Below, in pieces: positions 1 to 16,418 of a stretch of DNA of 20,000 nucleotides. The stretch lies in the IMG/VR virus record IMGVR_UViG_3300005294_000013. The stretch is one strand, 5' to 3'. The stretch comes from an uncultured virus (IMG/VR IMGVR_UViG_3300005294_000013). Its lineage: Duplodnaviria > Heunggongvirae > Uroviricota > Caudoviricetes. Each line of letters starts with the position of its first letter. Within the stretch, counting starts at the first letter, position 1. Below the pieces are notes generated by a model. It was not told where the DNA came from and did not search any database. It saw only the letters and a list, made by a program, of their open reading frames with translations. Position numbers and translations under genes: made by a program.

Positions 1-3000
1 GCGCTCAACGCTGCGGGTATCGGTCGTCCACCAGAGGGACGGGTTGATTTGGCGCAGTCGCCACTATTACTGACTAACCCCGCTGAGCGTCCGCCGGCAC
101 CTTCTGCCGGGCCGGGCGGCACCCCCCTGTCGGGAGATCCGGCGCGGCTACGTCCCGACCCGCTGACCCAGGGGCCGCCAGCCCGCTATGCTGGTGGAGA
201 AGGTATCGGCGGCACAGCACTGCCGCCGGAGCCAGGGTTAGCAGCACCCCTTCGACCACAATTAGCGTTGCCGCCGCCCGAGCGTCAACTTCTGCTACCG
301 CCGCCTGAAGGAGTACGTGGACCCGGCGGTCCTGGCGACTTCACGATGGGACAGGCACCAGTGCAGCCTGCCCCGATGCGGTCGCCCGGTGGTGCGCCGC
401 TAGGACCAGAGCCGACGCCTGCATCTTTTGTGCGTCCGCAACCGGTCGGGCCAGGAGGCATACCGCTGCGGCCAGAGCCCGGTCTGGCGCAGGCTCTGCC
501 GACGCGTCCGCTGGCCGCCGCAGCGGGGCCGGGTGGCGCGCCTCTACCAGCAGAGCCTTACCGAGCGGCACCCATACAACGTGGTGCGCCGCCACCAGGC
601 GCCGGTCCCGGCGGTACGCCGCTGGGGCCGGAGCCGTACCCCTCGGCACCGGTACGTCCACCGTCTCCCATGGGCGCTGGGCCGGGGGGTACACCTCTAC
701 CCGGCGAGATTGCCCCCGCAGCGACGGCGCGAGCCGCAGCCGTGGGGCCAGGTGGAGCACCATTGCGGCCGGAGCCAACACCGGCACCAGCTCCACCCCG
801 TCCAGCGCCTATCCCGGCAGGACCGGGTGGCGCACCCCTGCCGGCGGAGCCGGTACGCCGGGTTCCCCGGCGCGTGCAGCTTCCAGGGGAGAGCCCTGGC
901 GGCACCCCGTTGCCGGAGCAGCAACAGCGCGCGGCTGCCCCCCGCCGGCTCGAGCAAGCGGTACGGGGTGAAGGATTTACCACCCAGCCAGGGCGCGTCG
1001 AGCGGCGCCCCAGCGAGGGATTAAGCCACGAGGAACTAGGCCAGCGCCTCGCAGACCTGGGGGTGTCGCAGAAGGTACGCGAGCGGCTGGTTAGCCGCAC
1101 GGCACGGGCGGCAGCGCTCGATCAGATAGAAGAGATGCGAGCCCGCGGGAGGGAAGAGCCAGCGCCGGCTCCTCGTGGGGCTGAAGCACGGGAGCCGGCA
1201 CCGGCCGCTCGCCCGAGCGAGGGCATGAGCCACAAGCAACTGGGCGAAGCACTCGAAAAACTTGGGCTTTCTAAGAAGGAAGTCAACCAGTTCGTTAATA
1301 AAGTGCAGCGCGCTGCCGCGTATGACCGGCTGGTGCGGCAGGAAGCGGAGGCGATCGAGCGGGTTTCTGGGACTAGAAAAGGCGAAGGAGAACAACCCAC
1401 CACCATCCGCACCGTTATGGAGGCGGGGCCTGACGAAACCAAGGGGCATCCCGCAGGTGAGCGCGAGGATGCTGCGTGGCGTAAGCTGAAGCCCGAGCGC
1501 ACGGTTAGCGGCAGCTACAAAGGCGCGCCGGAGTGGGTAACGAAGCCTCGGCACCTGAAGCAGCTTCGCAACTTGATGAAGCAACTGATTAAAGAAGGAG
1601 AGAAAGGCCGGTACTGGTACGAAGACAGTATGAAGAAAATCATGCAGGTAACTCGCGGGAATCTGCGTGAAGCGGAGCGGGTGACTGGGCTTATCGCGAT
1701 CTACTCGCCGCAGCGCCCAGTGCCTACCAATACAGGTTTCGCCGTTAAAGCTTACGGGCAGTGGCGCCGGGGCGAGCCCATCCGCGTTGGCAGCGAAGCG
1801 CAGGATCTTAAGGCGAAGCAGTGGCTTGATAGCGGCCAGGACTGGGGTGGGCGCAAGACCAATAATTTCTACCTCAACTTGATGCACGAGCTGATCACGG
1901 CCCACCCCGAGGTGCTAGAGCCTGGTAATAACCGGCTCAACCTGCCACCCGACGTTACCGCGGCGATCAAAGGTGCGACAGTCGATCTGTGGGTGCTACG
2001 CGCTCTAGGTCACCGAGTAGATTCTGCTGGCGGTGTTACCGCGACAGGCAGTGCTGCCACTAAGTATGGGTTCTCTGAGCTTGAGATTAAGCGCCTTGCC
2101 GGGGAACTTAACGCGAGTGTGCCAGTGGGCGAGCAGCGCTGGCTGCCGCACCAAGTCCAGGCCGCGCTGTGGAGTGCGATCAAGGCCAGGTTTGAACTGA
2201 AGTCCGTTAAGGCTGCTACCTGGGCGGAGAGCGAAGCCGCTGGCTTCGCCAAGCGGAACCCGGAAACTGGTAAGCTTGAGGCGCCGTCGAAGAATGGCCC
2301 TGAACGCCAGGGGCATATGGCAATTTGGCGCAAACACGCGCTGGCGGCCGATCCCGCGGATGTGGCACGCGTCATCGATATCGCTCGTGGCGATTTTGGT
2401 GCTGCCCTCGAGCGTATGGCGCAGCATATCACCGTCGAGGCAATCCCCTCGAAAGACCTAAACCATCCGGTGTTTAACGCAAGCCGTGAAGCTCGCGACC
2501 AGTTTACTCGTGAGGCGTTTGACCTCATAACCGATGAAGACGGTAACGATTTAGTCGCTCAGAAGCTCGGCGTTGATCTGGGGTATCGAACCCCTGGGTC
2601 CGGCAGCTATGAGGGTAGGGTCAATCCCAACGTCGTTACCACGCTGATACCTGAGAAACCGGCGGGCTTCTTCGATGCGGTAAAAGCGCGGCAGTACGCT
2701 CGTGCGGTTCAGTACATTTTCAGACAAGACGCGGTGCCGATATTCCGCGCAGACCAGGCGCATAAATTTGGGCCGGATTTCTATCTGGTCGATAAGGACG
2801 GTAACAGGGTTGTCGACGACAAAGGGCGTCCCCTTAACCGGTTCCGTACCCAGGAAGACGCGCAGGCGGCTGCCGACCAGCGCACCGCCGCGGGGGAACT
2901 GACGACTATCAGGGGCGACAAAATAGCGCACGGTGCGCGGTTGGTATTTAAAGACGCTTTTGACGAAGCAAGCGAGCAGCGACTACTTACCGCCCTTGGT

Positions 3001-6000
3001 AGGGAACTTGGCGATGATGCCGGCTTTACTAAGATAGGTGATAATGAAGCAGTAGTTGTCAACTTTCGTGGTGACGACGGGTTACCGTTTATCGCTAAAG
3101 ATCGTGACTTTCGTGCCGCAGTTGATCGGATCGTTGCAGATACCGATATAGGGGTGGATCATGTAACGCATTTTGCGTTGGAGGGTGAATATGGCCCAGT
3201 CCAAGACTGGAAGGGAGGATCTGCTCCCGCACGAGGCTTGGCCGCCGACGCCGGCGGATCACCCGATTTTCAACGGTACCTTCAGGATCGGCATGCGGCG
3301 TTCGGGAAGCTCCTCGACGACTGGAGCGACCCCGAGGCCCGCCTCGCCGCCTCCCAACCCCGAGACGGAGGAGGAGTCGGACCTAGCGGGCGGTCTACCC
3401 TAGAACTACCGCAAGCCCGCGCGCCGCCCGACCAGAGGGCGGCGCGGGAACGTGCCGCCGAGAGGCGCGCCGCTGGGGTTGAAGCAACCCCTGAAGATCT
3501 ACCACCGCCGCGCGAGGATCGCCCCCTAGACGCCTCGCGCGCTCAGCGCGACCAGCCCACCGCCGAGAGCCCGCTGTCGCGGGTAATGAAAGACCCCAGG
3601 GTTAACGACCCGGTGCGCGCTGCCATCGATGCAGGCGGCAGTCTGCACGATGGGCTGCGGGCGATCGCCAACGACCCCTATACCAACCGGCGCCTGCCGC
3701 ACGTCGCGGCCTATGCGCGCACTATGCTCCGCCTCGCACCGGATTTGGAGCTACGCCCGTCGGAGACAGTGCGGCGCGGCGCCTTTGTGTCGGACTTAGA
3801 TCTCACGACAGGGCGGCGCGCCGAGCACATCCAGGTCCGCGAGAAGTCGGCGGAGGTGCTGCTACACGAGGCGACGCATTCAGTTGCCGGACACTACATC
3901 GACAGTCTGCAACCCGGCTCGCGTGAGTTTCAGGTGCTCACCACGATCCGCGACGAGTTTAGGCGCGGCGCCGAGGCGCATGGCCGGCTGGGCGACGAGC
4001 AGGTTGCCTACGCGCTGAGTAACCCGCACGAGCTGCACTCGATGCTCCGCACCAACCCGGAGATGCACGATTTGATGCGGGGCATCGTGCCCACCGCTGA
4101 GTACCGCGCCCGCATGGCGCAGCTAGGCTACCCCGTCGGCCCGGCTAAGTCCCTCTGGCAGTCCTTCGTCCGCTTCATCCGGCAAGCCCTGAAATTGCCG
4201 CAGAACGTGACCAGCTTGATGGATCACGTCATGCGCCCACTCGACGACATAGCCGAGGCCGGCGCCCGGTATAACCGTGACCTACCAGCTCCGACACGCG
4301 ACAGCGTGGTCTACCGGCGGGGCTGGGAGCAGGAACCCCTCGTCGCCAGGACCGAGCGCGAGTTGCCGACCTTCAGCCAGGTTCGTGACTCCGTCAACGA
4401 GTGGCGTGAGGGGCGCGCCGGGAACGTCTCCTCCGGTTTCCGCCGAGGTGTGCGCCAGGGCATGCCGACGGAGCAGCTCACCGGGTTTAACCGGCATTTG
4501 TTCCAGCCGTCGACCGGTGGGGAGAACCACCTCGATGTGCTGAACCGGGCGATGGAGGGGGTAGAGCGGGTATCGCGGGAGTATGGCGAGCAGCATCAGG
4601 CTGCGGTCACCGCGGCGATAAAGAACCTCAACCCCGAGTCCAACCACGTTATGACCGAGGCGTCCCGCCTCGACATGAACCCGGCCCACCCGCCTAATCA
4701 CCCACTGAATAGCCACAGCCGGGCCACGGCGGACGAGTTCAAGAAGGTAGTGGACGACTACAACAAGCTGTCCGCAGCGCAGAAGCAGGTAGTCACTGAC
4801 ACCTTCGACTTGACCCGCCAGCAGCGCGTCGACCGCGGCGACGCCGCCATGCGCGGCCTCGGCAAAGCGTATCTCGAGGGGGTGAGCGACGCCCAGGTCG
4901 AGACGATGGTCCGGCAAATGCGGACGATGGCGGGCGTCGACGAGATCCTCGCCAACGATACCAACCCCGTCGCACGCGCATTTGGCGACCAGTGGAACAG
5001 CAATCGCGATTTTGTTAAGGCTATAGCGACGGAGTGGAAGCGCGGCTGGATCAACAATTACGTCCCGCTGCACCGCAACGGCGACTGGGTGGTGACTTAC
5101 ACCGACCCCGACACCGGTCAGCCAGGCATGCTGTCCCGCTACACGAGGCACGAGGCGGAGGTGGCGCGACAAAAGCTAATTGACGAGGGAGCCGAGCCGT
5201 CGCTGGTGCTGTCGCGCGAGCGTAGGACGCCGAGCGATATCCCCCGGCTGTCGATCGTCGACGAGTTTGCCGCCAAGCTGGAGCGCAAGTTCGGCCCCGA
5301 GGGGCGCGCCCAAGCCGACGCGGCGCGCGAACTCTTGACCAAGGTCATGTTGGACCAGTCACGCTTCGCCGGCACCATGCGGAAGCGCCTAGGGGTGCAC
5401 GGCGCCGACCCGAGCAAGCTGGGCGAGGCGATGAGCCAGAATTTCCTCGCACTGAAAAACGCGATGGGGCACCTGGAATACGGCCCGCAATACGACGCTG
5501 GGCTCGCCGCCATGCGCCGTCACGTCGGCGAGATGGGGCGCGGCGCCAACACGGTGAAAGTCCGCGGCGAGAACCCCACCAGCGCCGACGTGATCCAGGC
5601 GCAGCAAGTTCTCGAAGAGTTTCAGCGTCGCAAGCCAGTCAGTGAAGACCCCAACAACATCCTGCTGAAGTCGGTCAACAACGCGACGATGTTCACCTAC
5701 TTTAAGTTCCTCGCCTCGCCGGCCCAGACCGTGATGAATGGCATCGAGACGTATATGCAGGGTATCCCCCGCATCGGTGCTCAGTTCGGTCTGGGTCGGG
5801 CTACGACGGCGATGGCTCGCGCGTCCGCGGAGATCATGCCCCGGCAGTTTGCCCGCGGCCTGGCCGGCACTAAGGACGTGGCGCTGCGGCGCCTCGATCC
5901 CGGCGAGTGGAACAGCGGCGATCAGATCAGGGATCACCTGATCCAGAACAGTCGACGCAACGATGCGGCCGGGATCACCGCGTTGTTTAAGCGGCTACAG

Positions 6001-7296
6001 GACGGCAACCTGATTGGCTATAGCAGCTATCGTGACCTCCAGAACATGGCGAAGGGCACCAGCGGTCGGCTGCGCGGCGCGGTCGACATGGCGACGGATT
6101 TTGTCTCGATTCTCCATAATAAGATGGAGGACGCGAATAGGGCGGTGACCGCACTAGCCGCCTACGATGTGCATCTGCAAAAGCACGGCGATCGCGCGGC
6201 GGCGATCGACTACGCGGATCGAATCCTGCGTAAGGCGCAGCCTAACTTCAACCTGTCGAACAAGCCACGCTTCGCCACGCCGCAGGGTAGTTTCGGTGCC
6301 TGGGGTATCCCCGTCGCACAGTTTCGCCAGCACGGCATGTGGGCATACAGCCAAATGGCCCTCGATATCCGCAACGCCTTCAAGGGCGCCGACGCCGCAA
6401 CAAAGACCGAGGCCCGCTACGCCCTGGCGTTCACCATCGGCATGCAGACGGTGCTGCTCGGGGCGCTTAACTGGCTGGCCGACCCGCTGCGGTACCTCTG
6501 GGGCGCCTATGATTTCCTCTCTGGCGGTAAGCCGCAGAACCACGAACACGATTTCCGCATGGCTGCCGCTAAAATATTTGGTACGACCGGCGGCGAGTTG
6601 TTCTCCCGTGGATTATCGCGAGGGCTGGGCTACGGTCCAGACATTTCCCACCGCGTCGGTATGATCAACCCACTCCTGATACCGGAGTTCAAGGGCGACT
6701 TTAGAAACCCCCAAGATGTGACCTACGCCGCGGTGACCGCGCTTGCCGGGGCGCCGGCGATCGGTGCGGGCTCGGAGGTTCTGACTGGCCTCGCTAATTT
6801 CGGCGCCGGTAACATCACGCAAGCCGTAACCGATCTTGTGCCAAAAGTTATTCGTGATCCGCTCAAAGCTTACCGCGGCGAAACCGAGGGGCAGGTAAGC
6901 CGGCGCGGCAACATCCAGCAGACGCCGGAACAAATATCAACCCTCGACACCGTGTACCAAGTGTTTGGCTTCAAGTCTGCGCGTCAGGGCGAGCGCAGCG
7001 AACAGACGGGTTCTCAGCGGCAGCTCTTGGATCAAATCAGAACCAGTCGCGAGGCAGCAACAAAAGAAGCGGCGCACGCTCTAATCAATGGTTCTGCGAG
7101 CGAGCGACGCGCTGCAAACGAGATGGTTGTTGCTCATAACAGGCGCTACCCCGGCTCGCAGATCGATCCGAAAGATGTCTTCGCTTACCGCAAGCGCGAG
7201 ATCGAGAGGTTGCGCGACCCCACACTGACATCAATAACTGTTCCCAAGGGGTTGCAGCCGGCGGTGAGACAGGCTGGAGCATTTGCTAACTACTAA
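1..7296 (+). CDS. Giant polyvalent protein, probable internal virion/ejection protein (5'-truncated by the window)
   Basis: Frame is open from base 1 (ALNAAGIGRPPEGRVD precedes the TTG at 49). Motifs: WY..YSPQ..KTNNF..TVDLW..QVQAALW (~1606-2184), HEATH (3865-3879), YVPLHRNGDW (5059-5088, PLxRFG-like), and a helical C-terminus (EDANR..A.AAY..QF) typical of such proteins. Confidence 0.85.
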   Translation, partial: ALNAAGIGRPPEGRVDLAQSPLLLTNPAERPPAPSAGPGGTPLSGDPARLRPDPLTQGPPARYAGGEGIGGTALPPEPGLAAPLRPQLALPPPERQLLLPPPEGVRGPGGPGDFTMGQAPVQPAPMRSPGGAPLGPEPTPASFVRPQPVGPGGIPLRPEPGLAQALPTRPLAAAAGPGGAPLPAEPYRAAPIQRGAPPPGAGPGGTPLGPEPYPSAPVRPPSPMGAGPGGTPLPGEIAPAATARAAAVGPGGAPLRPEPTPAPAPPRPAPIPAGPGGAPLPAEPVRRVPRRVQLPGESPGGTPLPEQQQRAAAPRRLEQAVRGEGFTTQPGRVERRPSEGLSHEELGQRLADLGVSQKVRERLVSRTARAAALDQIEEMRARGREEPAPAPRGAEAREPAPAARPSEGMSHKQLGEALEKLGLSKKEVNQFVNKVQRAAAYDRLVRQEAEAIERVSGTRKGEGEQPTTIRTVMEAGPDETKGHPAGEREDAAWRKLKPERTVSGSYKGAPEWVTKPRHLKQLRNLMKQLIKEGEKGRYWYEDSMKKIMQVTRGNLREAERVTGLIAIYSPQRPVPTNTGFAVKAYGQWRRGEPIRVGSEAQDLKAKQWLDSGQDWGGRKTNNFYLNLMHELITAHPEVLEPGNNRLNLPPDVTAAIKGATVDLWVLRALGHRVDSAGGVTATGSAATKYGFSELEIKRLAGELNASVPVGEQRWLPHQVQAALWSAIKARFELKSVKAATWAESEAAGFAKRNPETGKLEAPSKNGPERQGHMAIWRKHALAADPADVARVIDIARGDFGAALERMAQHITVEAIPSKDLNHPVFNASREARDQFTREAFDLITDEDGNDLVAQKLGVDLGYRTPGSGSYEGRVNPNVVTTLIPEKPAGFFDAVKARQYARAVQYIFRQDAVPIFRADQAHKFGPDFYLVDKDGNRVVDDKGRPLNRFRTQEDAQAAADQRTAAGELTTIRGDKIAHGARLVFKDAFDEASEQRLLTALGRELGDDAGFTKIGDNEAVVVNFRGDDGLPFIAKDRDFRAAVDRIVADTDIGVDHVTHFALEGEYGPVQDWKGGSAPARGLAADAGGSPDFQRYLQDRHAAFGKLLDDWSDPEARLAASQPRDGGGVGPSGRSTLELPQARAPPDQRAARERAAERRAAGVEATPEDLPPPREDRPLDASRAQRDQPTAESPLSRVMKDPRVNDPVRAAIDAGGSLHDGLRAIANDPYTNRRLPHVAAYARTMLRLAPDLELRPSETVRRGAFVSDLDLTTGRRAEHIQVREKSAEVLLHEATHSVAGHYIDSLQPGSREFQVLTTIRDEFRRGAEAHGRLGDEQVAYALSNPHELHSMLRTNPEMHDLMRGIVPTAEYRARMAQLGYPVGPAKSLWQSFVRFIRQALKLPQNVTSLMDHVMRPLDDIAEAGARYNRDLPAPTRDSVVYRRGWEQEPLVARTERELPTFSQVRDSVNEWREGRAGNVSSGFRRGVRQGMPTEQLTGFNRHLFQPSTGGENHLDVLNRAMEGVERVSREYGEQHQAAVTAAIKNLNPESNHVMTEASRLDMNPAHPPNHPLNSHSRATADEFKKVVDDYNKLSAAQKQVVTDTFDLTRQQRVDRGDAAMRGLGKAYLEGVSDAQVETMVRQMRTMAGVDEILANDTNPVARAFGDQWNSNRDFVKAIATEWKRGWINNYVPLHRNGDWVVTYTDPDTGQPGMLSRYTRHEAEVARQKLIDEGAEPSLVLSRERRTPSDIPRLSIVDEFAAKLERKFGPEGRAQADAARELLTKVMLDQSRFAGTMRKRLGVHGADPSKLGEAMSQNFLALKNAMGHLEYGPQYDAGLAAMRRHVGEMGRGANTVKVRGENPTSADVIQAQQVLEEFQRRKPVSEDPNNILLKSVNNATMFTYFKFLASPAQTVMNGIETYMQGIPRIGAQFGLGRATTAMARASAEIMPRQFARGLAGTKDVALRRLDPGEWNSGDQIRDHLIQNSRRNDAAGITALFKRLQDGNLIGYSSYRDLQNMAKGTSGRLRGAVDMATDFVSILHNKMEDANRAVTALAAYDVHLQKHGDRAAAIDYADRILRKAQPNFNLSNKPRFATPQGSFGAWGIPVAQFRQHGMWAYSQMALDIRNAFKGADAATKTEARYALAFTIGMQTVLLGALNWLADPLRYLWGAYDFLSGGKPQNHEHDFRMAAAKIFGTTGGELFSRGLSRGLGYGPDISHRVGMINPLLIPEFKGDFRNPQDVTYAAVTALAGAPAIGAGSEVLTGLANFGAGNITQAVTDLVPKVIRDPLKAYRGETEGQVSRRGNIQQTPEQISTLDTVYQVFGFKSARQGERSEQTGSQRQLLDQIRTSREAATKEAAHALINGSASERRAANEMVVAHNRRYPGSQIDPKDVFAYRKREIERLRDPTLTSITVPKGLQPAVRQAGAFANY
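100..920 (+). repeat. About 11 degenerate coding repeats, consensus (A/V)GPGG(T/A)PLxxEP
   Basis: Read from the translation: AGPGGTPLSGDP, SPGGAPLGPEP, VGPGGIPLRPEP, AGPGGAPLPAEP (twice), AGPGGTPLGPEP, AGPGGTPLPGE, VGPGGAPLRPEP, SPGGTPLPE, plus weaker copies. Confidence 0.9.
1009..1345 (+). repeat. Two copies of a ~40-aa helical module
   Basis: PSEGLSHEELGQRLADLGVSQKVRERLVSRTARAAALDQI (from 1009) and PSEGMSHKQLGEALEKLGLSKKEVNQFVNKVQRAAAYDRL (from 1213). Confidence 0.85.
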
Positions 7297-7310
7297 CTGT
7301 GGAGAACGAT

Positions 7311-7526
7311 ATGAACCCAGCCGGGCTGGCGCAAGCAGTAGTAGAGGCAGCAAACCCTCTCCCCCAAAATCGGTTTAACGCCGCTCGTGGATATATAGAA
7401 CGACAACCGTGTATGAACCCACTAGGGCCGTTAGTGTGGACTACCGTCGAGGCGCGAGTGTTTGCAAAAGCGGGGAGCCGTTGGCGGGATATGACCAACG
7501 GGGTGTTTTGGATGGTAGGTGAGTGA
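7311..7526 (+). CDS. Hypothetical protein (71 aa)
   Basis: GGAG 6 nt before ATG 7311; stop overlaps the next start (GTGATG). Confidence 0.6.
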   Translation: MNPAGLAQAVVEAANPLPQNRFNAARGYIERQPCMNPLGPLVWTTVEARVFAKAGSRWRDMTNGVFWMVGE

Positions 7527-7747
7527 TGGGTTCTTTAATCATCGGATTGTTGTGGGTACTTCTGGCGGTAGTTCTTATCGCTGGAGTGTTCCTCGCCGTG
7601 CTCTGGGTATTGCGCTATATCGGTCTGCCGGTGCCGCCCCAGGTAGACAAATTCGGGTTATTGATCATCGCCCTGCTGGCGTTGATCTGGATAGTCACGC
7701 TGGTCCTCGGCGGTGCTGCGCCGTTCCACGGGTTATCTCTGAAATGA
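7523..7747 (+). CDS. Small two-TM membrane protein (possible holin)
   Basis: Two long hydrophobic segments separated by RYIGLPVPPQVDK; coupled to both neighbours. Confidence 0.7.
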   Translation: MMGSLIIGLLWVLLAVVLIAGVFLAVLWVLRYIGLPVPPQVDKFGLLIIALLALIWIVTLVLGGAAPFHGLSLK

Positions 7748-7926
7748 TCACCCGCGGTCGTTGGTCCCCCCTCTATGGACCATCGCGCATCCCCTCGACC
7801 GTGCCGCCGGAGGAACCGCCGGCTGGCACCGAGGAAGAGCAATACAGCGCCGACATGCAGCGGCGCATGCTGGAGTTTGAGCTGGACCCCGCCAACTTTT
7901 TCAAGATGCCGCGGGGCAGCGGCTAA
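7744..7926 (+). CDS. Hypothetical protein (60 aa, MITRGRWSP...)
   Basis: ATGA overlap with the previous stop at 7744-7747; 3' part of the listed 7519..7926 ORF. Confidence 0.55.
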   Translation: MITRGRWSPLYGPSRIPSTVPPEEPPAGTEEEQYSADMQRRMLEFELDPANFFKMPRGSG

Positions 7927-7931
7927 AGAAA

Positions 7932-8180
7932 ATGGATATACTGGCTGCCGCGTTGTCTCTGATCCTGTTGCACCGGGCGGACGGTGGTGAGGTCGCGGTT
8001 ATCCCAGCCCACATCGCCAGCATACACGCAAAGGCGCCGCCGACAGACGCAAAAAATAAATTGCTCTCTCCGGCAGCGCGCTGCGTCCTCTGGATGGACG
8101 ACGGCAAACTACTCGCGGTGTTGGAAACCTGCGACGCGATTAAGAAATTATTGGATGAGGCGACGGGCGAGCTAAAATGA
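7932..8180 (+). CDS. Small hypothetical protein, beta-rich, faint FlbD-like pattern
   Basis: ATG 5 nt after the previous stop; LILLHRADGGEVAVIPAHIASI...VLETCDAIKKLL pattern. Confidence 0.65.
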   Translation: MDILAAALSLILLHRADGGEVAVIPAHIASIHAKAPPTDAKNKLLSPAARCVLWMDDGKLLAVLETCDAIKKLLDEATGELK

Positions 8181-8294
8181 CGACGCCAGCCTGGGGAGTC
8201 CCAATGACTCAGGCTGGCGTCGGGACGCCGGGGCCGACTGGCAACCCCGGCATCTAGGAGGGAACGATGGATCAGACCCGTCGTAAACTCCTGC
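8174..8294 (-). ncRNA. Putative antisense (antitoxin) sRNA, ~120 nt
   Basis: Lies between a near-consensus minus-strand promoter (8328-8300) and a hairpin plus U-rich tail (8222-8174); complementary to the RBS and start of the 26-aa ORF. Ends are inferred. Confidence 0.6.
8181..8222 (-). terminator. Strong hairpin, probable terminator of the antisense RNA
   Basis: cgacgccagcct (8181-8192) pairs with aggctggcgtcg (8211-8222), with an inner gagtc/gactc stem; followed on the minus strand by TCATTTT. Confidence 0.65.
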
Positions 8295-8347
8295 TACTGA
8301 CTATACGGTTTGGACCCTTTCGGGTCAAGATCGTCATAGCTCTGTAG
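8267..8347 (+). CDS. 26-aa cationic hydrophobic peptide MDQTRRKLLLLTIRFGPFRVKIVIAL, putative type I toxin
   Basis: Strong SD (AGGAGG, 8256-8261) before ATG 8267; double TAG stop; followed by a GC hairpin. Too short for the ORF track. Confidence 0.7.
   Translation: MDQTRRKLLLLTIRFGPFRVKIVIAL
8300..8328 (-). promoter_or_regulatory. Sigma70-type promoter TTGACC-N17-TATAGT inside the peptide ORF
   Basis: Minus strand reads cTTGACC cgaaagggtccaaaccg TATAGT; 5/6 match in each box, 17-bp spacer. Confidence 0.75.
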
Positions 8348-8349
8348 TA

Positions 8350-8387
8350 GGAGGGGGAGCCGGCGTGAGCCGGCTCCCTATCCCTCC
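8350..8387. terminator. GC-rich hairpin between convergent genes
   Basis: gggagccggc-GTGA-gccggctccc (8355-8378), extendable by ggagg/cctcc; no clear U-tract. Confidence 0.6.
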
Positions 8388-8390
8388 GCT

Positions 8391-8792
8391 TCACGCTAGC
8401 ACGTACTTCCGCCCCTCGTTGCGTGCCAGGGTGCCGTTCTTAATCAGCGCAGTCAGTGCGTTGGATACCGCCATCTCGCCTGACTTATCGCCCTTCACGC
8501 CGATTGTTTCGAGCAACTCTCCACGCGCGAGCCCCTCCAGTGGAACTTGACGCAGCGCATCGACAATGGCACTACGCCGACTGCCGGGGCGCCGTTGGTT
8601 TTGGTGTGGGCGGTGAGCCGCTGGTATCTTCCCAGCCTTAGCCGCCGCATAGGCGTCGATCGCCTGCATGTCGCGGTCGAGCTGCGTCAACTGCGTCTCG
8701 ATTTCAATCTTCCGCTCGAGCAGTGCATCGCGCTCGCCGTAGATGCGCGCCCGCTCCTGATCCATGTATTGGGCAAAATCGATCATATTCAT
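8391..8792 (-). CDS. Putative DNA-binding protein: N-terminal coiled coil, basic linker, C-terminal winged helix
   Basis: Heptad-like ERDALLERKIEIETQLTQLDRDMQAI; wHTH-like SRRSAIVDAL..GLARGELLETIG..AVSNALTALIKNGTLARNEGRKY; RBS GGAAGGAG. Confidence 0.75.
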   Translation of the reverse strand: MNMIDFAQYMDQERARIYGERDALLERKIEIETQLTQLDRDMQAIDAYAAAKAGKIPAAHRPHQNQRRPGSRRSAIVDALRQVPLEGLARGELLETIGVKGDKSGEMAVSNALTALIKNGTLARNEGRKYVLA

Positions 8793-8816
8793 AGCTCCTT
8801 CCTATAAGGGTACTAT

Positions 8817-8845
8817 GAATATACGCAGACCAAACTGTGTTTCAA
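8817..8845 (-). promoter_or_regulatory. Possible promoter TTGAAA-N16-TATATT for the wHTH gene
   Basis: Minus strand reads gTTGAAA cacagtttggtctgcg TATATT in the gap upstream of 8792. Confidence 0.45.
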
Positions 8846-9066
8846 CCAGGATGTGTGAGCGCCCGCGCCAGCGCACCAAACCCTTCCCAGATCGTGTAAT
8901 CCCCCCAGGCGCGGACCTCGCACTGGGTATCAGCGCTCGCCAACACAGCGACGATGAATCGTAGGTCGGGCTGCTCACCCCGCTCAATCTCGTCGGCCAG
9001 CTCGCGAAGCTGGCGGGGGATGTCTCGGTATGCTCCGGCGTCGAGGGGTACGATCTTTGCTGTCAT
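8842..9066 (-). CDS. Hypothetical protein (74 aa, MTAKIVPL...)
   Basis: ATGA overlap with the upstream stop at 9066-9063; GAGGTGG RBS-like sequence. Confidence 0.65.
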   Translation of the reverse strand: MTAKIVPLDAGAYRDIPRQLRELADEIERGEQPDLRFIVAVLASADTQCEVRAWGDYTIWEGFGALARALTHPG

Positions 9067-9287
9067 GAATGTGTCCACCTCATATTCAGCGGAGCTAGAT
9101 GACGGCGGCGTTGCGCCGTCGCGCGGCGGTTGCGCTGCGCTCGCATGTAGATCTGGTCGTCTTCTACCCAGAACACTAGGTCATGCACGAGACCGCAATC
9201 GCAGCAGGCGATCCGGTATGTCGGACCGACCGGGATGTCTCGGGTCCAGCCTTCCACCTCGATCTCCTGGGTATATTTAGCTTTCAT
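9063..9287 (-). CDS. Small putative Zn-binding protein (CCDCGLVH)
   Basis: Cys/His motif with a basic tail; translationally coupled to the next gene. Confidence 0.7.
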   Translation of the reverse strand: MKAKYTQEIEVEGWTRDIPVGPTYRIACCDCGLVHDLVFWVEDDQIYMRAQRNRRATAQRRRHLAPLNMRWTHS

Positions 9288-9353
9288 CGAGGGTCGATCA
9301 TAGCCGCGAGTTCAAGGTCGGTGAACCTCGTCGTAACGCTTATCCCAGCGCCG

Positions 9354-9527
9354 TCATGGCGGCTCCTGCGTGATGTTCAGGACGATCCTTGGCTGCCTAC
9401 CCGGCACTGGCGTCTCGCCGGGTTTGAGCAACCGAGCTAGCCAGTAGGGGATGGGGATCGAGTAGGTACGCTCGATCCGCCCAGGAGGATCGTCAGGGTC
9501 GCGGAACTGAATAAACGGAAACCACAT
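9354..9527 (-). CDS. Hypothetical protein (57 aa, MWFPFIQFRDPDDPPG...)
   Basis: Hand-translated; ATG 3 nt after the upstream stop; fills the operon gap. Confidence 0.45.
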   Translation of the reverse strand: MWFPFIQFRDPDDPPGRIERTYSIPIPYWLARLLKPGETPVPGRQPRIVLNITQEPP

Positions 9528-9530
9528 AGG

Positions 9531-9731
9531 CTAGGTCACCTTCAGGGGTTGCGGCATCATCTCGATAACGCATGCTCCGCAGTATTGATAGTTAACGGGT
9601 TCTTTGTTCGGGTGGGCTGTAAATTGCAGCAATATCCCGCCACGCTGTAACCCATGTGTGGGGCACTCTAGCCCTTCTTTTGAACTCCACGAGCCGAAAT
9701 CAAACGGCAAGTACGTAGATGGTGTTTGCAT
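9531..9731 (-). CDS. Small putative Zn-finger protein (CPTH...CGAC)
   Basis: CxxH and CxxC motifs; TAATG overlap with the upstream gene; GGAGGT RBS. Confidence 0.65.
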   Translation of the reverse strand: MQTPSTYLPFDFGSWSSKEGLECPTHGLQRGGILLQFTAHPNKEPVNYQYCGACVIEMMPQPLKVT

Positions 9732-10858
9732 TAGCCTACCTCCCCCTCGTCAAACTTATCGAGGTAGCCCGCAACGAGCCGAATAAACCACGCGCGACGT
9801 TGGAGCAGTACCTTTAGAGTGTTACGGTCTTTTTGACTGAGACTATTAAAGTCCTCGACGCTAGGTGCGGTATCGTTGCTGATAATCGGGGGGTTATATT
9901 CTTCCTCGCTACTGACAAACTGCACCGCTTTACCGACCCCGGCGAGGACTTTATGGAAGCGCTTCATCAGCCGTTGCTGCGCGATCTGGTCTAGGGTGTA
10001 GATCTGAATACGCCCACCGACCTTGTCGACGTGAGCATCGTCGTTGGTCCACCCCGGCGGGTACCCCTCGGCCTGCTGTTTCCCCCAGTCGACGGAGCCC
10101 ATGCCGCGTTCCTCGCGGGTCATTTCCCATCGGGGCGAGTGCGCTAGCCGGCGTGCCGCAATCTGCTCCAGCGTTAACCGGGGCGGCGGCGCCGGTTTAG
10201 CCGGCTTGGCGGTAAGCGGCGACGCTGGCAGTTCTCCAGCCTCCCTGAGCCGCGACTTGAGCCCCGACACAGTGCCGATGGAAACGCCGTGACGCAGTGC
10301 AACTTCCTGTTGTGCCATCGGGTTGTTTTTGAGATCGGCGACAATAGCGGCGCGGGTTTCAGCGCTGATTTTACCCGCAACTGGGTAGGACTTCCCATCG
10401 GTACCAACCACTTTCGCGGTTTCAGGTGCGGAAGGTTCCGCACCTGAACGAATAGCTGCTGCTACCGTCTTATCGTCGACGTGGGCTAGCTTGGCAATTT
10501 GCCGATTGCTCGCATTTGGATTCCGCCTTTTGTATTCGCGGATAATATCCTGCTGCTGAGCGCTGGTTAGGTGCCGGCGCCGCAAATTAGCGCCGATGAT
10601 ATATGCGAACACGTCCTGGTCGGGACGCAGCCGCTCGTAGCGCGGCTCGACATCGGCGATCTCACAGGCTTTCTCGCGGTTGCGCCCGTCGACCAACAAG
10701 GCGCCGTCAGATGTCAGCTTGATGGGCTGTTGCAGCCCGTTGGTTTCGATGTCGGTAGCCAGTTCAAACAGCTCGGTTGCCGACATCATGGGGAACAACT
10801 CCGCATCAGGGTGATGCGGTATCGGCTCGCGGGGGAAGAGTCGGGTAACAGTAGACAT
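9731..10858 (-). CDS. ParB/Srx N-terminal domain protein with two HTH motifs
   Basis: HP.AELFPMMS..EL..DI..NGLQQPI..LVDGRNR..AC..ANLRRRHLT; HTHs SNRQIAKLAHVDDKTVA and QQEVALRHGVSIGTVS. Confidence 0.85.
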   Translation of the reverse strand: MSTVTRLFPREPIPHHPDAELFPMMSATELFELATDIETNGLQQPIKLTSDGALLVDGRNREKACEIADVEPRYERLRPDQDVFAYIIGANLRRRHLTSAQQQDIIREYKRRNPNASNRQIAKLAHVDDKTVAAAIRSGAEPSAPETAKVVGTDGKSYPVAGKISAETRAAIVADLKNNPMAQQEVALRHGVSIGTVSGLKSRLREAGELPASPLTAKPAKPAPPPRLTLEQIAARRLAHSPRWEMTREERGMGSVDWGKQQAEGYPPGWTNDDAHVDKVGGRIQIYTLDQIAQQRLMKRFHKVLAGVGKAVQFVSSEEEYNPPIISNDTAPSVEDFNSLSQKDRNTLKVLLQRRAWFIRLVAGYLDKFDEGEVG

Positions 10859-12474: not shown

Positions 12475-12738
12475 CAGGTCTTTTACTGGGTTTTTAAAAA
12501 ATTATCACTGTAAGCGATTGATATTGGCTGCGTTGTGGCGGAACGGCACTCCACGGTACCTATGTCTCTCATAGTCTCAGGAAGTCCACAACTCCTTGAT
12601 CGGGCTGCATTACGCTCCTATAAGAGTCTCAGTTAGTCTCAGAACGTCTCAGATAATCCCACTTGAATTGTTGGGTTGGACGACGTATTTGACAGATGTG
12701 ACCGCGGAATCCTCCGCCACATAGAGGGCTGACGAGTT
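12475..12738. other. Putative attP region
   Basis: Non-coding region upstream of the integrase; IHF-consensus matches at 12511-12523 and 12589-12600; candidate core tggcGGA-acggcac-TCC (12536-12552); GTCTCA repeats at 10-bp spacing. Confidence 0.7.
12564..12652 (+). repeat. Two triplets of 10-bp-phased direct repeats (GTCTCAG), likely Xis-binding sites
   Basis: gtctct 12564, gtctca 12574, gtccac 12584; gtctca 12626, 12636, 12646. Confidence 0.8.
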
Positions 12739-14007
12739 ATGGCACGCAGGGCAACGCCGCTGACAGCGCGGCAGGTAGCAACGGCAAAACCAGGGGTCTA
12801 CGGCGATGGGAACGGACTGTTCCTGATCGTCCAGATGAGCGGCGCACGCGCCTGGGAAGTGCGTTACAAGGTCATCACCAGCCAGAAGCGCCGGTCGATG
12901 GGTATCGGCGGCGTCGACCACCCCTACTCTCTGGCAGAAGCGCGCGAGCAGGCGCGCGCGATCCAGAAGGCGGCGAAGCTCGGCATCGATCCACGGGTCG
13001 AGCGGGCGCAACAGCGGGGGGAGGCAGCCAAGGTAGACGAGACGACCTTTCGATCCTTTCGATTCTGCGCTGAAGGATATATCGCAAGCCATCGATCTGC
13101 TTGGAAGAGCGCTCAGCATGCTCAAGACTGGGAGAGGTCGCTGACCAACCACGCCTACCCTCTCCTGGGTGATAGGCCGGTGCAGGACATTACCGCGCTC
13201 GATGTGTTGGAGGTGTTGCAGCCGATCTGGTTGAAGATCCCCGAGACAGCCAGCCGGGTCCGCAACCGCATCGAGCTGGCGATCGACTGGGGCATCGCGA
13301 TGGGTCATCGCACCAACGAGGCGAACCCGGCGCGCTGGGCCGGTAAGCTGCGAATGCTGTTGCCGTCGCCGACCAAGGCCGCTGCGATGGAGCGTCTCAC
13401 CAGCGGTCGACGAGAGCATTTCGACGCGCTCCCCTGGCAGGAGCTGCCCGCCTTCGTCGCACGCCTGCGTGAGTACGAGTCCCTAACGGCGCGAGCGCTT
13501 GAGTTCACCATCCTCACCGTCGCTCGTACCAACATGACGCGGGCCGCGGAGTGGAACGAGGTCGATTTCGACGCGCGGGTGTGGACGGTCCCGGCGGTGC
13601 GGATGAAGATGGGTAAAGCCCACGAGGTACCCCTATCAGACCGGGCGGTAGAAATCCTAATCCAGCAAAAGGAATACGCCGATCGTACTCGCTCAAAGTT
13701 TATTTTCCCCGGCGTCGATCCACAACGGCCCATCCACGATAACACAATGTACACGTTTCTAAAACGATACATGGGGCGTGACGATATCACTGTGCATGGT
13801 TTCCGCTCTACCTTCCGGCAGTGGGTAGCGGATAAAGAACTGCCACCTGACGCAGCCGAGATGGCGCTGGCTCATACCCTCGGCAAGGTGTTAGGGGCAT
13901 ACCAACGCAGTAAGCTGTTGGACCGGCGACGCCACCTGATGGATGCGTGGGCTAGGTTTATCTCCGGCGAAGACACGACAGTTATTGCGTTCCCAGTTCG
14001 AGCTTAG
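12739..14007 (+). CDS. int: P4-type tyrosine integrase with an arm-binding N-terminal domain
   Basis: YGDGNGLFLIV..GARAW..MGIG..SLAEARE N-terminus; catalytic R (VAR), K (RMK), HGFR, LAH and Y (GAY). Confidence 0.96.
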   Translation: MARRATPLTARQVATAKPGVYGDGNGLFLIVQMSGARAWEVRYKVITSQKRRSMGIGGVDHPYSLAEAREQARAIQKAAKLGIDPRVERAQQRGEAAKVDETTFRSFRFCAEGYIASHRSAWKSAQHAQDWERSLTNHAYPLLGDRPVQDITALDVLEVLQPIWLKIPETASRVRNRIELAIDWGIAMGHRTNEANPARWAGKLRMLLPSPTKAAAMERLTSGRREHFDALPWQELPAFVARLREYESLTARALEFTILTVARTNMTRAAEWNEVDFDARVWTVPAVRMKMGKAHEVPLSDRAVEILIQQKEYADRTRSKFIFPGVDPQRPIHDNTMYTFLKRYMGRDDITVHGFRSTFRQWVADKELPPDAAEMALAHTLGKVLGAYQRSKLLDRRRHLMDAWARFISGEDTTVIAFPVRA

Positions 14008-14164
14008 CTAGGAACTCGCTGGGTGGGGTAATAATGATACGTACCCTGCCCAGCTTTACCGTTTTAATTTTCTTGTCTTTGATCAGCCGCCACGTCCCAG
14101 CCCGCGAGATACCTACTTTTGGATACCACTCGCTGACCCGCCATCCTTGCTTTTCGTCATTCAT
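13982..14164 (-). CDS. xis: Excisionase / AlpA-like winged HTH (60 aa)
   Basis: WRVSEWYPKVGISRAGTWRLIKDKKIKTVKLGRVRII; start overlaps the helicase stop; adjacent to int. Confidence 0.82.
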   Translation of the reverse strand: MNDEKQGWRVSEWYPKVGISRAGTWRLIKDKKIKTVKLGRVRIIITPPSEFLAKLELGTQ

Positions 14165-16418
14165 ATTTATCCCTCGACGGTAGGTCTGATGGTTGGGGGT
14201 TATCCTTACGCACATTATCGAGGACGTGCGTTAGCTGCGGGTGTCGTAGATCAAACTCGACACACCGTGTGAGGTACGCTCCTGGTGGGTTAGCCCGGTT
14301 GGATTTACCTATCGTAGCGTGTTTAGCAGCGTCAATCTTCCATCTTAGTTCCATATCTTTTCTGAGTTGTTTCCAGTTGATATGATATTTCCTACACCAT
14401 TCAATTAGAGTGTAGCGGTTGACCCGCATCACCTCATCCTCAAGCGCAATATGTATTTCTATACGTTTAGCATTTTGGTTTGGGTACCGTATCGCAACGG
14501 GTATGGTTTTTGTATTAAGATTAGTACTCATAATATCGGTCACTAAAGTCTCTTGCTGGAACGACGATATAAATTTATCCAGCACCTCCTCGGCACCCTG
14601 GGCTAGAACTATTGCTTCCCCCCGCTCGCGGCGAAGGCTGTTAAAGTTGGTAAATAAGAAATCCCGCATGCTGGCGAGGTCGAAATTAACTAGTTTTAGG
14701 TGAAATGCGTATAAAGCGCCGAGTAAGATACAGGTAATAAATCCAATATAAAACCGCTCGCCAGCTTGTGGCTTAAGTATCTCCACAAGCTGCCTAGTGA
14801 AAGTGTGGTAGTCGTTTTGTACTCTATCCATGTTTTGCGCCAGCCACGCTGCGTATACCGCGCCGGCAGTACCACGGTTAGCCTCAAACGCACCTACCAG
14901 ACTCGTATCCGTATTGCCTTCGTACATTGTTTGGAGGGGGAATGAAAATAAACGCAACGCCCCCGCATCGGTCGTCGCACCAGTCATGTGGATTACATCA
15001 TCCATAATTTCCTGGTTTGTTGTAATCACACATATGCTACTCCACGCATTCACCTTACGCGCCGCCGCGTTGCGGTCGAGCCGGAGTTTGTCGCTACCCT
15101 CCGATATCGAGAACAACATCTCGATAACTCGCTTACTACTATCATCATCGTAAATCCTAATCTCATCGAGGTACTGCGGCATCGAGTGCCACTTACCCAG
15201 CCGATCGCTAATAGCGTTGACGGTATCTCGCAGCTTGATGTGGTTACCATGCCACGAGGTCCACACCGACTGCCCCGCGGCGGCAGCGGTGGATTTAGCA
15301 GTACCGGACGCGCCATAGGTCGAAGCGATTAGCCCCCCGCCAAAATGCCCGAGCTGGACTAGCGGTGCTGCGAAGGCGGCGGCCACGACGATTTGTATAT
15401 CCGGCCGATCCTTGATCAGGGTGTTTACCGCCTGGGTCCAAGGCTCACGCTTGCCCTTTGGTGTGAAGTCAGCCGCCATGATCGGGTCGGAACAGACAAT
15501 CGACCGGGTGCTGCCATCGGGCTGGTACAATATGTCCCCAACAGCAAACCCGGCCTTGCTCCAGGTACAAGGTTTGATATCGTCATGCACCTGCATCATA
15601 TTTTCTAAATGTTTGATCCAGGCCACGAGAAATCTCCCAAACGTCTTTGCTTCGTGATCGTGTAGTGTGATGTGCTGCCGCGCAAAATATTGTCGAGCAT
15701 GCTGCTCGGTAGGGATCGATACCTCGTCGAAATAAACATAATGTCCAGGGTTGTGGGTAAAAGACAGACGATACCCTTCCGCTAATTTGATCAACCGCGG
15801 TGCGACGACCATGCTTTTTATCACCGCCACCCAGTCGGCCTCGCCCGACTTGTCGACCAGGCGGGCCTCGAGCCAGCCCTGGGCGCGCCGGTAGCCCACC
15901 GGCATATCCCAGTTCTCGACACCGAGGCTGAGCGGCGAGCGGATGTGGCCCCAGTGCGGGCAGCTCGGACACACGTCTCGCCGGTAGCCGTGGTATTTGG
16001 TGCAGGTGGGAAGCCCCAGAGCCTTGCGGGTGCGCTCATCGTGCGCTCGCTGCAACTCCGCGTCGGTGTCAGTCCTCGAGTAGGCAGCGTGCCCCTGCCC
16101 CAGCCGGTGCGCGTACTCGTCGCCGTCAACGCACCCGGTTGCTAGCGTGACGTGCCCCAGGTACCAGAGGTCGCGTGAATCCTGCGCGCCGCCGGTCGCC
16201 AGCGAGGTCTTTACTTGGGCGCAGCGCTCGGCGATCAATGCCATGTAGTGCGGCCGGCGCTCGATGCCGGTCTGCACCGCGGCGTTGAGCCCCTCGTGCC
16301 CAGCGAAGGCGCTGGAGGGGCCTCCGCTCAAGCCGCTGTCGGTGGGTTCGCGCTGTTCGACGAGGTGCTTGTAGGGCGCTAGGGCGGCGTCTAGCTCCCC
16401 CCTGTCAATCGGTCCCAT
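14157..16418 (-). CDS. Cys-cluster domain plus DUF927-type P-loop helicase (C-terminal part of a primase-helicase)
   Basis: PTC..CPSCPHWGHIRSP Cys cluster; AAAFAAPL; Walker A-like GASGTAKST; Walker B YLDE; EGSDKLRL; GALRL; NRGTAG. First credible ATG at 16418. Confidence 0.85.
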   Translation of the reverse strand: MGPIDRGELDAALAPYKHLVEQREPTDSGLSGGPSSAFAGHEGLNAAVQTGIERRPHYMALIAERCAQVKTSLATGGAQDSRDLWYLGHVTLATGCVDGDEYAHRLGQGHAAYSRTDTDAELQRAHDERTRKALGLPTCTKYHGYRRDVCPSCPHWGHIRSPLSLGVENWDMPVGYRRAQGWLEARLVDKSGEADWVAVIKSMVVAPRLIKLAEGYRLSFTHNPGHYVYFDEVSIPTEQHARQYFARQHITLHDHEAKTFGRFLVAWIKHLENMMQVHDDIKPCTWSKAGFAVGDILYQPDGSTRSIVCSDPIMAADFTPKGKREPWTQAVNTLIKDRPDIQIVVAAAFAAPLVQLGHFGGGLIASTYGASGTAKSTAAAAGQSVWTSWHGNHIKLRDTVNAISDRLGKWHSMPQYLDEIRIYDDDSSKRVIEMLFSISEGSDKLRLDRNAAARKVNAWSSICVITTNQEIMDDVIHMTGATTDAGALRLFSFPLQTMYEGNTDTSLVGAFEANRGTAGAVYAAWLAQNMDRVQNDYHTFTRQLVEILKPQAGERFYIGFITCILLGALYAFHLKLVNFDLASMRDFLFTNFNSLRRERGEAIVLAQGAEEVLDKFISSFQQETLVTDIMSTNLNTKTIPVAIRYPNQNAKRIEIHIALEDEVMRVNRYTLIEWCRKYHINWKQLRKDMELRWKIDAAKHATIGKSNRANPPGAYLTRCVEFDLRHPQLTHVLDNVRKDNPQPSDLPSRDKYE

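Follow-up and report, generated by a model that had tools for sequence, protein, structure and literature searches.

Does the 210-nt gap between two converging phage genes hold a type I toxin-antitoxin (TA) locus? The question was raised by a preliminary description, made from the letters alone, of a stretch of 20,000 nucleotides (nt) of an uncultured virus of the Caudoviricetes (IMG/VR record IMGVR_UViG_3300005294_000013); this whole stretch is referred to below as the window. According to that description, an unannotated 26-codon open reading frame (ORF) at 8267-8347 may encode a small toxin, and an RNA driven on the minus strand from a promoter inside the ORF may act as the antitoxin. We found that the ORF is part of a conserved module of ~215 nt, in which its Shine-Dalgarno (SD) sequence is predicted to pair with a complementary anti-SD into one closed fold, and we consider it plausible, with a probability of roughly 0.4, that the module is a type-I-TA-like small-peptide gene, locked in the style of hok and aapA and under antisense control.

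The conserved module and the predicted fold of its plus-strand RNA

The first step towards an answer is the delimitation of the unit to which the ORF belongs. The module and its elements are:

8173-8387 (~215 nt), no strand assigned: the whole module, from TAAAATGA to the anti-SD TCCCTCC, between the converging genes for an 82-aa (amino acid) and a 133-aa protein
8181-8222, no strand assigned: hairpin 1, with perfect 13-bp (base pair) arms (8181-8193 / 8210-8222), terminator-like on the minus strand and also folding on the plus strand
8224-8254, minus strand: hairpin 2, with 10-nt arms (8224-8233 / 8245-8254)
8257-8263, plus strand: the SD, GGAGGGA, 5' strand of the closing helix, invariant in all sequences
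8264-8284, plus strand: the start-codon hairpin, stem ACGAUGG / CCGUCGU, with a 7-nt loop that equals codons 2-4
8267-8347, plus strand: the 26-codon ORF, MDQTRRKLLLLTIRFGPFRVKIVIAL, with a second in-frame TAG after the stop codon
8288-8353, plus strand: the ORF hairpin, an RNA structure in which the two halves of the ORF pair together
8354-8379, plus strand: hairpin 3, a GC-rich stem of 11 bp that is followed by a T-run on neither strand
8381-8387, plus strand: the anti-SD, TCCCTCC, 3' strand of the closing helix, right edge and last conserved element of the module

Relatives were sought by anchoring on the neighbouring protein and by DNA patterns. In their alignment the homology within the gap starts at TAAAATGA and stops at ...CCCTATCCCTCC, and because it begins and ends at these edges while the flanks differ, we have hardly any doubt that the module is a real, discrete and conserved unit. 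It was found on 7 distinct contigs, four from IMG/VR (including a 14-kb record that is a near-twin of the window, 100% identical to it over 7300-9300) and three short metagenome contigs; a variant with a deletion comes in addition. These contigs fall into two diverged forms, the window type and the L006/L008 type, with 82% nt identity across 216-217 nt between the window and its relatives (blastn). An anchor search with an alignment of the 133-aa protein led to the same four viral contigs, a scan of viral contigs with a 17-mer spanning SD and ATG gave 9 matches (these four contigs and five unrelated gene starts), and the 6 pattern matches in metagenome contigs comprised three with the lengths of viral contigs from the set above and the three new short contigs, which are nearly identical to the L006/L008 type. 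Each phage record holds a single copy, and no paralogous extra copies were found in the phage genomes at E <= 10.

The predicted structure of this module is far beyond chance. The plus-strand RNA of 8170-8395 has a folding energy of -139.8 kcal/mol (z -11.0), a stability reached by 0 of 200 shuffled sequences, and the minus strand of the module folds at -126.4 kcal/mol (z -8.7). Among sliding segments of 220 nt (n = 990) none deviated as far as the module, whose z-scores were -6.8 on the plus and -4.9 on the minus strand, versus -2.9 and -2.8, respectively, for the next segments without overlap; in a relative, the values were -127.3 kcal/mol (z -8.8) for the plus strand versus -94.0 kcal/mol (z -4.8) for the minus strand. 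The consensus structure comprises 79 pairs, distributed over hairpin 1, hairpin 2 and a three-way domain that is closed by the helix of SD and anti-SD and holds the start-codon hairpin, the ORF hairpin and hairpin 3, and the same fold is predicted for the second lineage. Hairpin 3 (8354-8379), the ORF hairpin (8288-8353) and the 7-bp helix 8257-8263 : 8381-8387 had not been listed in the preliminary description.

The substitutions between the two lineages indicate the strand on which this fold matters. Changed columns number 17 of 158 among paired positions versus 16 of 47 among unpaired, ungapped ones (Fisher p = 4e-4), and of the changed pairs 10 of 13 are still standard in both lineages on the plus strand, versus 2 of 13 on the minus strand; the changes are mostly of A-U to G-U or of C-G to U-G. 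It is very likely that the fold has been selected on the plus-strand RNA. In the start-codon hairpin the stem is invariant and 6 of the 7 loop positions have changed, and among the 28 pairs of the ORF hairpin 5 vary, on one side only, and are all still paired. The ORF hairpin is also strongly plus-biased in its stability (-36.6 and -33.5 kcal/mol in the two lineages, versus -26.2 and -12.5 on the minus strand), whereas hairpin 2 is stabler on the minus strand in both lineages (-24.2 and -15.4 versus -16.6 and -12.6 kcal/mol) and the strands are about equal for hairpin 1 (plus -32.5 and -31.9, minus -30.8 and -27.6 kcal/mol). In its right part the module thus looks like a plus-strand RNA structure, and in its left part it appears at least as good on the minus strand, a pattern expected from a sense-antisense pair with the extents proposed below. 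A side observation is that the loop of hairpin 3 (8365-8368) is inverted between the lineages (GTGA versus TCAC in the L006 type) with its stem kept, which looks like a hairpin-loop flip.

A further feature of the fold is the SD lock. SD and anti-SD form a predicted 7-bp helix, with the anti-SD 117 nt downstream of the SD, and their mean predicted pairing probability was 0.98 in both lineages, whether the module was folded by itself, with flanks of 100 nt or together with the whole upstream gene. When the RNA was folded after being cut before the anti-SD, the probability of an unpaired SD rose from 0.02 to 0.99 for the window, and for the relative it reached 0.68; the SD was freed in silico once the last 8-13 nt were removed. 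The AUG stays inside its small hairpin throughout (probability unpaired 0.001-0.008). At the level of the predicted fold, the RNA would be a primary transcript with a sequestered SD that cannot be translated, and such transcripts, kept silent by SD:anti-SD pairing, are named as a major hallmark of type I loci in the available text of PMC6733600.

Does the plus-strand RNA also encode a peptide? An open frame of 26 codons is trivial by itself and it is its conservation that counts. The SD, the ATG, the reading frame and the TAG-TAG double stop are invariant across both lineages, the sequence TAGGAGGG (8255-8262) placing GGAGG 5 nt ahead of the ATG, and the relatives' peptide (MGTIRRKLLLLTIRFGPLRVKIVVAL) has the same start and the same stop. 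Codons 2-4, which make up the loop of the start-codon hairpin, differ at 6 of 9 nt between the lineages. In codons 5-26, where the counts include one private change in contig L016, third codon positions account for 7 of the 8 substitutions, and 6 of the 8 are synonymous; taking all single substitutions tolerated by the RNA structure as the expectation, 28-33% (P ~0.001-0.002) and 28-29% (P ~0.007-0.01), respectively, would be expected. This excess at third positions and of synonymous changes after control for structure makes protein-level selection visible on top of the structural constraint, and since the substitutions both keep pairs and fall at third positions, the ORF is probably translated. 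Gene callers had called the 26-aa form of the relatives once and a 31-aa form, that of the deletion variant, on 3 contigs.

The same evidence bears on a different explanation, namely that the module is a non-coding, structured element of the plus strand with a fortuitous ORF, for instance a stabiliser or insulator of the late operon's 3' end combined with a convergent terminator, or an undescribed phage small RNA. The extreme and conserved structure, the gathering of substitutions in unpaired positions, the free variation of codons 2-4 (6 of 9 nt) as a mere hairpin loop and the rare codons (ACT, ATA) in paired positions are all in line with it, and what we call SD and anti-SD may do no more than close a three-way junction. 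However, both the bias towards third positions (7 of 8) and the excess of synonymous changes survive the restriction to structure-neutral substitutions, a strong SD at ideal spacing, the ATG and the double stop are all invariant, and Rfam returned 11 weak matches of which none reached threshold (best E 0.08, with 20.9 bits versus a gathering score of 60). We therefore regard a purely non-coding element as rather unlikely.

The candidate antisense RNA and the weight of the evidence

The second half of the question concerns the minus strand, with the following features:

8300-8328, minus strand: a sigma-70-like promoter, TTGACC-17-TATAGT, inside the ORF, with 10 of 12 consensus matches, an optimal 17-nt spacer and an implied start at ~8293
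8173-8180, minus strand: the T-rich tail TCATTTTA, immediately after hairpin 1, where minus-strand transcripts are proposed to end
8173-8293 (~120 nt), minus strand: the proposed antisense RNA, deduced from promoter and terminator, which would cover the SD, the start codon and the first 9 codons

The sequence signals on which the preliminary description had built its proposal proved to be present. The ORF is there with its strong SD (GGAGG 5 nt before the ATG, conserved in the second lineage); the minus-strand TTGACC-N17-TATAGT is found at 8328-8300, and hexamers and spacer length are identical in the second lineage, with 3 substitutions in the 29-nt region, all in the spacer; and the two hairpins and the TCATTTT tail lie where they had been placed. 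Hairpin 1 with the T-rich tail is conserved up to the left edge of the module, the tail being invariant in 7 of 7 aligned sequences, and the tail (TCATTTT being the complement of 8174-8180) is the only T-run of the module, following hairpin 1 on the minus strand only. Of the 10-kb loci of two relatives, one contains no such site besides the internal promoter and the other a single further one; the number of sites with at least 10 of 12 matches expected inside the 217-nt module is 0.008, a figure that is post hoc. The proposed RNA, folded as 124 nt, forms three hairpins with -69.8 kcal/mol (z -7.5), compared with -55.9 and -54.3 kcal/mol in the relatives. From these signals, we give a dedicated antisense RNA made from the internal promoter a chance that falls just short of even.

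The window holds a second site with 10 of 12 matches, TTGAAA-16-TATATT, on the minus strand at 8845-8818, just upstream of the 133-aa gene. In three related contigs its -10 hexamer, the sequence after it and the SD are conserved and its -35 hexamer is not; the conserved -10 suggests that the host reads this type of promoter. Hairpin 3 lacks a T-run on the minus strand, and read-through from this site would give antisense RNA across the whole ORF.

We infer from these data a type-I-TA-like mode of action with two transcripts. The plus-strand RNA would encode a cationic, partly hydrophobic peptide of 26 aa and would fold into the closed three-way domain, with the SD on the anti-SD of the 3' edge, the AUG in a hairpin and the two halves of the ORF paired, and because of this closed fold the full-length RNA is proposed to be translationally inert. 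Trimming of its 3' end back to hairpin 3 would then free the SD. The minus-strand RNA of ~120 nt, starting in the ORF (~8293) and ending at hairpin 1 and UCAUUUU (~8173), would be fully complementary to the SD, the AUG and the first codons, and could block translation of the unlocked mRNA or trigger its cleavage, and read-through of the convergent 133-aa operon might add further antisense transcript. A peptide that escapes both controls would harm the host cell; that the predicted peptide is toxic is a tentative proposal, somewhat less probable than the reading as a whole.

Several observations weigh against this reading. The promoter match alone could be due to chance: the 20-kb window has 6 sites with at least 9 of 12 matches where 6.5 are expected, and 2 with at least 10 of 12 where 0.71 are expected (P(>=2) = 0.145). 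Both hexamers moreover sit in positions that are paired and coding, so that their conservation carries no independent weight. The consensus structure was predicted from the same sequences that were used to judge its conservation, and the fully compensatory pairs number two, both in hairpin 1, which 33 of 500 shuffles reach as well. Of the features that homologous loci were to share according to the preliminary description, ORF and promoter are conserved in the second lineage, whereas the support from covarying stems is thin. Diversity is little, with two diverged lineages, and the module was absent outside a small phage clade in every collection searched (phages, plasmids, genome, metagenome and viral contigs); for instance, a distant blastn search with 7200-9800 against the phage and plasmid collections gave no match, and two back-translated patterns gave 0 matches in the collection of genome contigs.

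The deletion variant weighs in both directions. It arose by a single deletion of 465 nt, with TTG microhomology at the junction, which takes ORF codons 16-26, the antisense -35, hairpin 3, the anti-SD, a neighbouring 65-aa gene and the 3' part of a DUF3310 gene. The deleted form is carried by a 61-kb phage record with direct terminal repeats that is rated 100% complete, and the module is therefore dispensable for the phage. We count the joint loss of the C-terminal codons of the peptide and of the antisense -35 in one deletion in favour of a type-I-TA-like module.

The peptide itself is also not what most known type I systems would lead one to expect. With 26 aa it is within the usual size of type I toxins (<60 aa), and it is cationic and partly hydrophobic, with GRAVY values of 0.54 and 0.99 in the two lineages. 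Its net charge, however, is +5 or +6, with basic residues at positions 5-7, 14, 19 and 21 and Gly-Pro at 16-17, and no stretch free of K, R, D and E is longer than 6 residues, so that it has no transmembrane helix as described for membrane-associated type I toxins; in the available text of PMC8309996, most type I toxins have such a helix. Of the type I proposal, the conserved ORF and the predicted SD lock have support in silico, promoter-like and terminator-like signals are present, and a transmembrane stretch and a promoter for the mRNA were not found. A candidate that we dropped is a twin-arginine motif: the N-terminal T-R-R-K-L-L presumably resembles one, but the T is not conserved and a product of 26 aa cannot be a signal peptide with its cargo.

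As to that promoter, the best plus-strand matches within 330 nt upstream of the ORF have 8 of 12 positions in the window and in two relatives, and in a third relative no plus-strand match at all was found within the same distance. The hexamer TAAAAT (8173-8178) was considered as the -10 of the peptide mRNA and rejected, as it has no conserved -35 and the implied start cuts into hairpin 1. Hairpins 1 and 2 are without a T-run on the plus strand, and together with the lack of a credible plus-strand promoter this suggests that the peptide mRNA may be the tail of the late operon; the mRNA may come from a non-consensus promoter or be supplied by that operon.

These findings agree with the strongest competing explanation, in which the module is an ordinary, moron-like accessory gene that ends the late operon. 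The SD lock would then tune translation or stability, the peptide would be non-toxic, the internal promoter match would be fortuitous in place of a dedicated antisense RNA, and hairpin 1 with its T-run would be the terminator of the convergent 133-aa operon. Besides the coding signal with its conserved SD, start and stop, it would account for the missing promoter of the plus-strand RNA, which late transcripts could supply by entering the module through hairpins 1 and 2, for a minus-strand promoter match in the chance range for the window, for a peptide without a transmembrane segment and for the dispensability of the module, and transcripts ending at hairpin 1 could start from the promoter-like site at 8845-8818, ahead of the 133-aa gene. 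It leaves unaccounted for that the relatives' best sigma-70 match in their 10-kb loci lies inside an ORF of 81 nt, in antisense orientation and with an optimal spacer, and that hairpin 2 favours the minus strand. So strong a 5'-3' lock of the SD would also be unusual for a harmless gene, being a hallmark of type I toxins in the available text of PMC6733600, and convergent read-through would still yield antisense RNA over the ORF. We think of a harmless accessory gene as possible, though on the unlikely side.

A coding frame on the minus strand would cast doubt on the coding signal of the ORF. The frame at 8272-8394 (40 aa in the window, overlapping the stop codon of the 133-aa gene in GTGA) has its wobble positions in common with the plus-strand ORF, which could then be its shadow; it is open in both lineages along the compared stretch and there shows an equally synonymous pattern, with 5 synonymous codon changes and 1 non-synonymous one. 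Its start is not conserved, though, the ATG being ACC in the relatives with an in-frame TGA upstream, which leaves a TTG without SD; its stop moves, it is not adjacent to the 133-aa gene in the relatives, and the RNA structure at this place is selected on the plus strand. Because of the unconserved start without SD, the moving stop and the strand of the structure, we consider a minus-strand gene highly improbable.

The phages that carry the module

The window is part of a temperate phage of ~60 kb from soil. Its tyrosine integrase is encoded at 12739-14007, and it has a gene for a DUF927 primase-helicase as well. Plus-strand genes (a giant ORF, several small ORFs and the 82-aa ORF) converge on a minus-strand set that ends with the 133-aa gene, and the gap between the two operons is the site of the module. 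The direct neighbours are:

7932-8180, plus strand: the 82-aa gene, left neighbour and last of the plus-strand genes
8391-8792, minus strand: the 133-aa gene, right neighbour and last gene of the minus-strand set

At the left junction, an ORF at 8177-8257 with an ATGA overlap with the 82-aa gene was rejected as a gene, since in the relatives it stops after 5 codons. The phages are syntenic, with additional DNA on both sides of the module in the relatives. On the left, ~0.8 kb of extra genes lie between the 82-aa homologue and the module; in L006 (3102-3560) this DNA holds a 46-aa ORF that ends in the module's TAAAATGA and, on the opposite strand, a 76-aa acidic ORF, both of them plausible. On the right, 0.5-0.6 kb between the module and the 133-aa homologue (L006 2295-2832; L009 2914-3273) carry a DUF3310 gene, encoding 125 aa with a zinc ribbon, and the 65-aa gene, both absent from the window.

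Some further observations concern the remainder of the window. The giant ORF (1-7296) has at least 2,431 codons and is open at the window start; GPGG(T/A)PL-like units recur in its proline-rich N-terminal region, and a match to a DarB-like antirestriction PHROG (E 1e-26) lies in its C-terminal third. Downstream of it, two plus-strand ORFs, 7519-7926 and 7523-7747, overlap. The latter encodes 74 aa, among them two long hydrophobic stretches, and has a conserved counterpart in contig L018, and contigs L008 and L009 have a different hydrophobic ORF of 56 aa in its place, so small membrane proteins seem to be swapped at the position of window ~7519-7926. Upstream of the integrase gene, a stretch of 42-48 nt (12505-12552) is 90-92% identical in the relatives, compared with 67-79% for the integrase region there, and is followed by repeated (T)AGTCTCAG-like motifs; together (12505-12660) these may represent an attP core and integrase arm sites. 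The GC content falls to 0.48 at 14001-15000, against a window average of ~0.60, in a part that spans the 3' part of the DUF927 primase-helicase gene and sequence beyond. A tRNA scan found no tRNA.

Likeness to known systems and what the module would mean

The system that comes closest is aapA/IsoA of Helicobacter pylori (aapA1/IsoA1, aapA3/IsoA3), to which the preliminary description had pointed. Its account of that layout is borne out by the available text of PMC5416894, in which the isoA1 promoter lies within the toxin ORF and is inactivated by two mutations that leave the AapA1 peptide unchanged. The full-length aapA1 mRNA of 253 nt is untranslatable, its 5' untranslated region (UTR) pairing with the 3' end, and once the last ~25-30 nt are lost the SD is exposed; in the active mRNA, the first 76 nt are the pairing partner of IsoA1 (PMC5416894, PMC6733600). 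As far as these sources describe it, the same arrangement is predicted here: a peptide of about 30 aa with an antisense promoter inside its ORF, a candidate antisense RNA (here, sequence signals) over 5' UTR, SD and start, an mRNA (253 nt there, a module of ~215 nt here) made inert by 5'-3' pairing that hides the SD, and exposure of the SD by removal of the 3' end (~25-30 nt there, 8-13 nt here in silico). As far as sequence signals and predicted folds go, the module reproduces the aapA1/IsoA1 architecture in every point. It differs in its carrier, a phage with a GC-rich genome in place of a chromosome, in that a promoter for the peptide mRNA was not found in the 330 nt scanned, and in the peptide: AapA1 has an amphipathic transmembrane helix with basic ends in the available text of PMC8309996, whereas here basic residues are spread throughout with Gly-Pro in the middle. 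Homology to aapA/IsoA was not detected in Pfam, NCBIfam or Rfam, a comparison with curated models, not with AapA/IsoA sequences, in libraries that may lack these families.

Hok/sok of plasmid R1, which is cited with its homologues in PMC6733600, has a full-length toxin mRNA that is inert through 5'-3' closure and activated by 3' trimming, and a short cis-antisense RNA over the translation-initiation region, as is proposed for the module. The peptide matched 0 Pfam families at E <= 0.01 and 0 NCBIfam families at E <= 10, and is thus not placed in the Hok/Gef family; an overlapping leader ORF like mok is absent here, and the peptide is half the size of Hok and lacks a transmembrane segment. PMC6733600 also names txpA/RatA and bsrG/SR4 of Bacillus subtilis as type I TA systems. 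Unlike the candidate RNA here, their antisense RNAs reach over the 3' part of the toxin mRNA, and their toxins are hydrophobic and sit in the membrane.

Phages offer parallels of their own, in part from other kinds of regulation. Both B. subtilis systems are carried by prophages or prophage-like elements and, as is proposed for the module, combine a small peptide with an antisense RNA. The sar RNA of P22 (target ant) and the OOP RNA of lambda (target cII) are short cis-antisense RNAs that start from a promoter inside or next to the target gene and overlap its ribosome-binding region or its end, at places where opposing transcription units meet, which resembles what is proposed for the module. 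Their targets are regulatory proteins, whereas here it is a peptide of 26 aa, and no SD-locking 5'-3' fold is known to belong to either system.

A further-reaching proposal, which we regard as doubtful, is that the module represents a new family of type I TA systems of temperate soil phages, with a strongly cationic toxin that is not a transmembrane peptide, with an SD lock and an in-ORF antisense RNA combined, and with the balance of convergent transcription timing the peptide. As an equally speculative part of it, the collision of late and early operons at the module would let the peptide be made, e.g. late in infection or after loss of the prophage.

Type I TA loci are hard to find by homology, and membrane-associated type I toxins are described only in Proteobacteria and Firmicutes in the available text of PMC8309996. 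If the antisense RNA or the toxicity should fail, an unusually well-folded small phage gene remains, of modest interest. If the type-I-TA-like reading is true, a phage-borne TA family would have been found from RNA architecture alone, the 5'-3' lock of the SD with activation from the 3' end would have arisen again outside hok and aapA, and a peptide so unlike a membrane helix would broaden the range of what can be regarded as a toxin of this kind.

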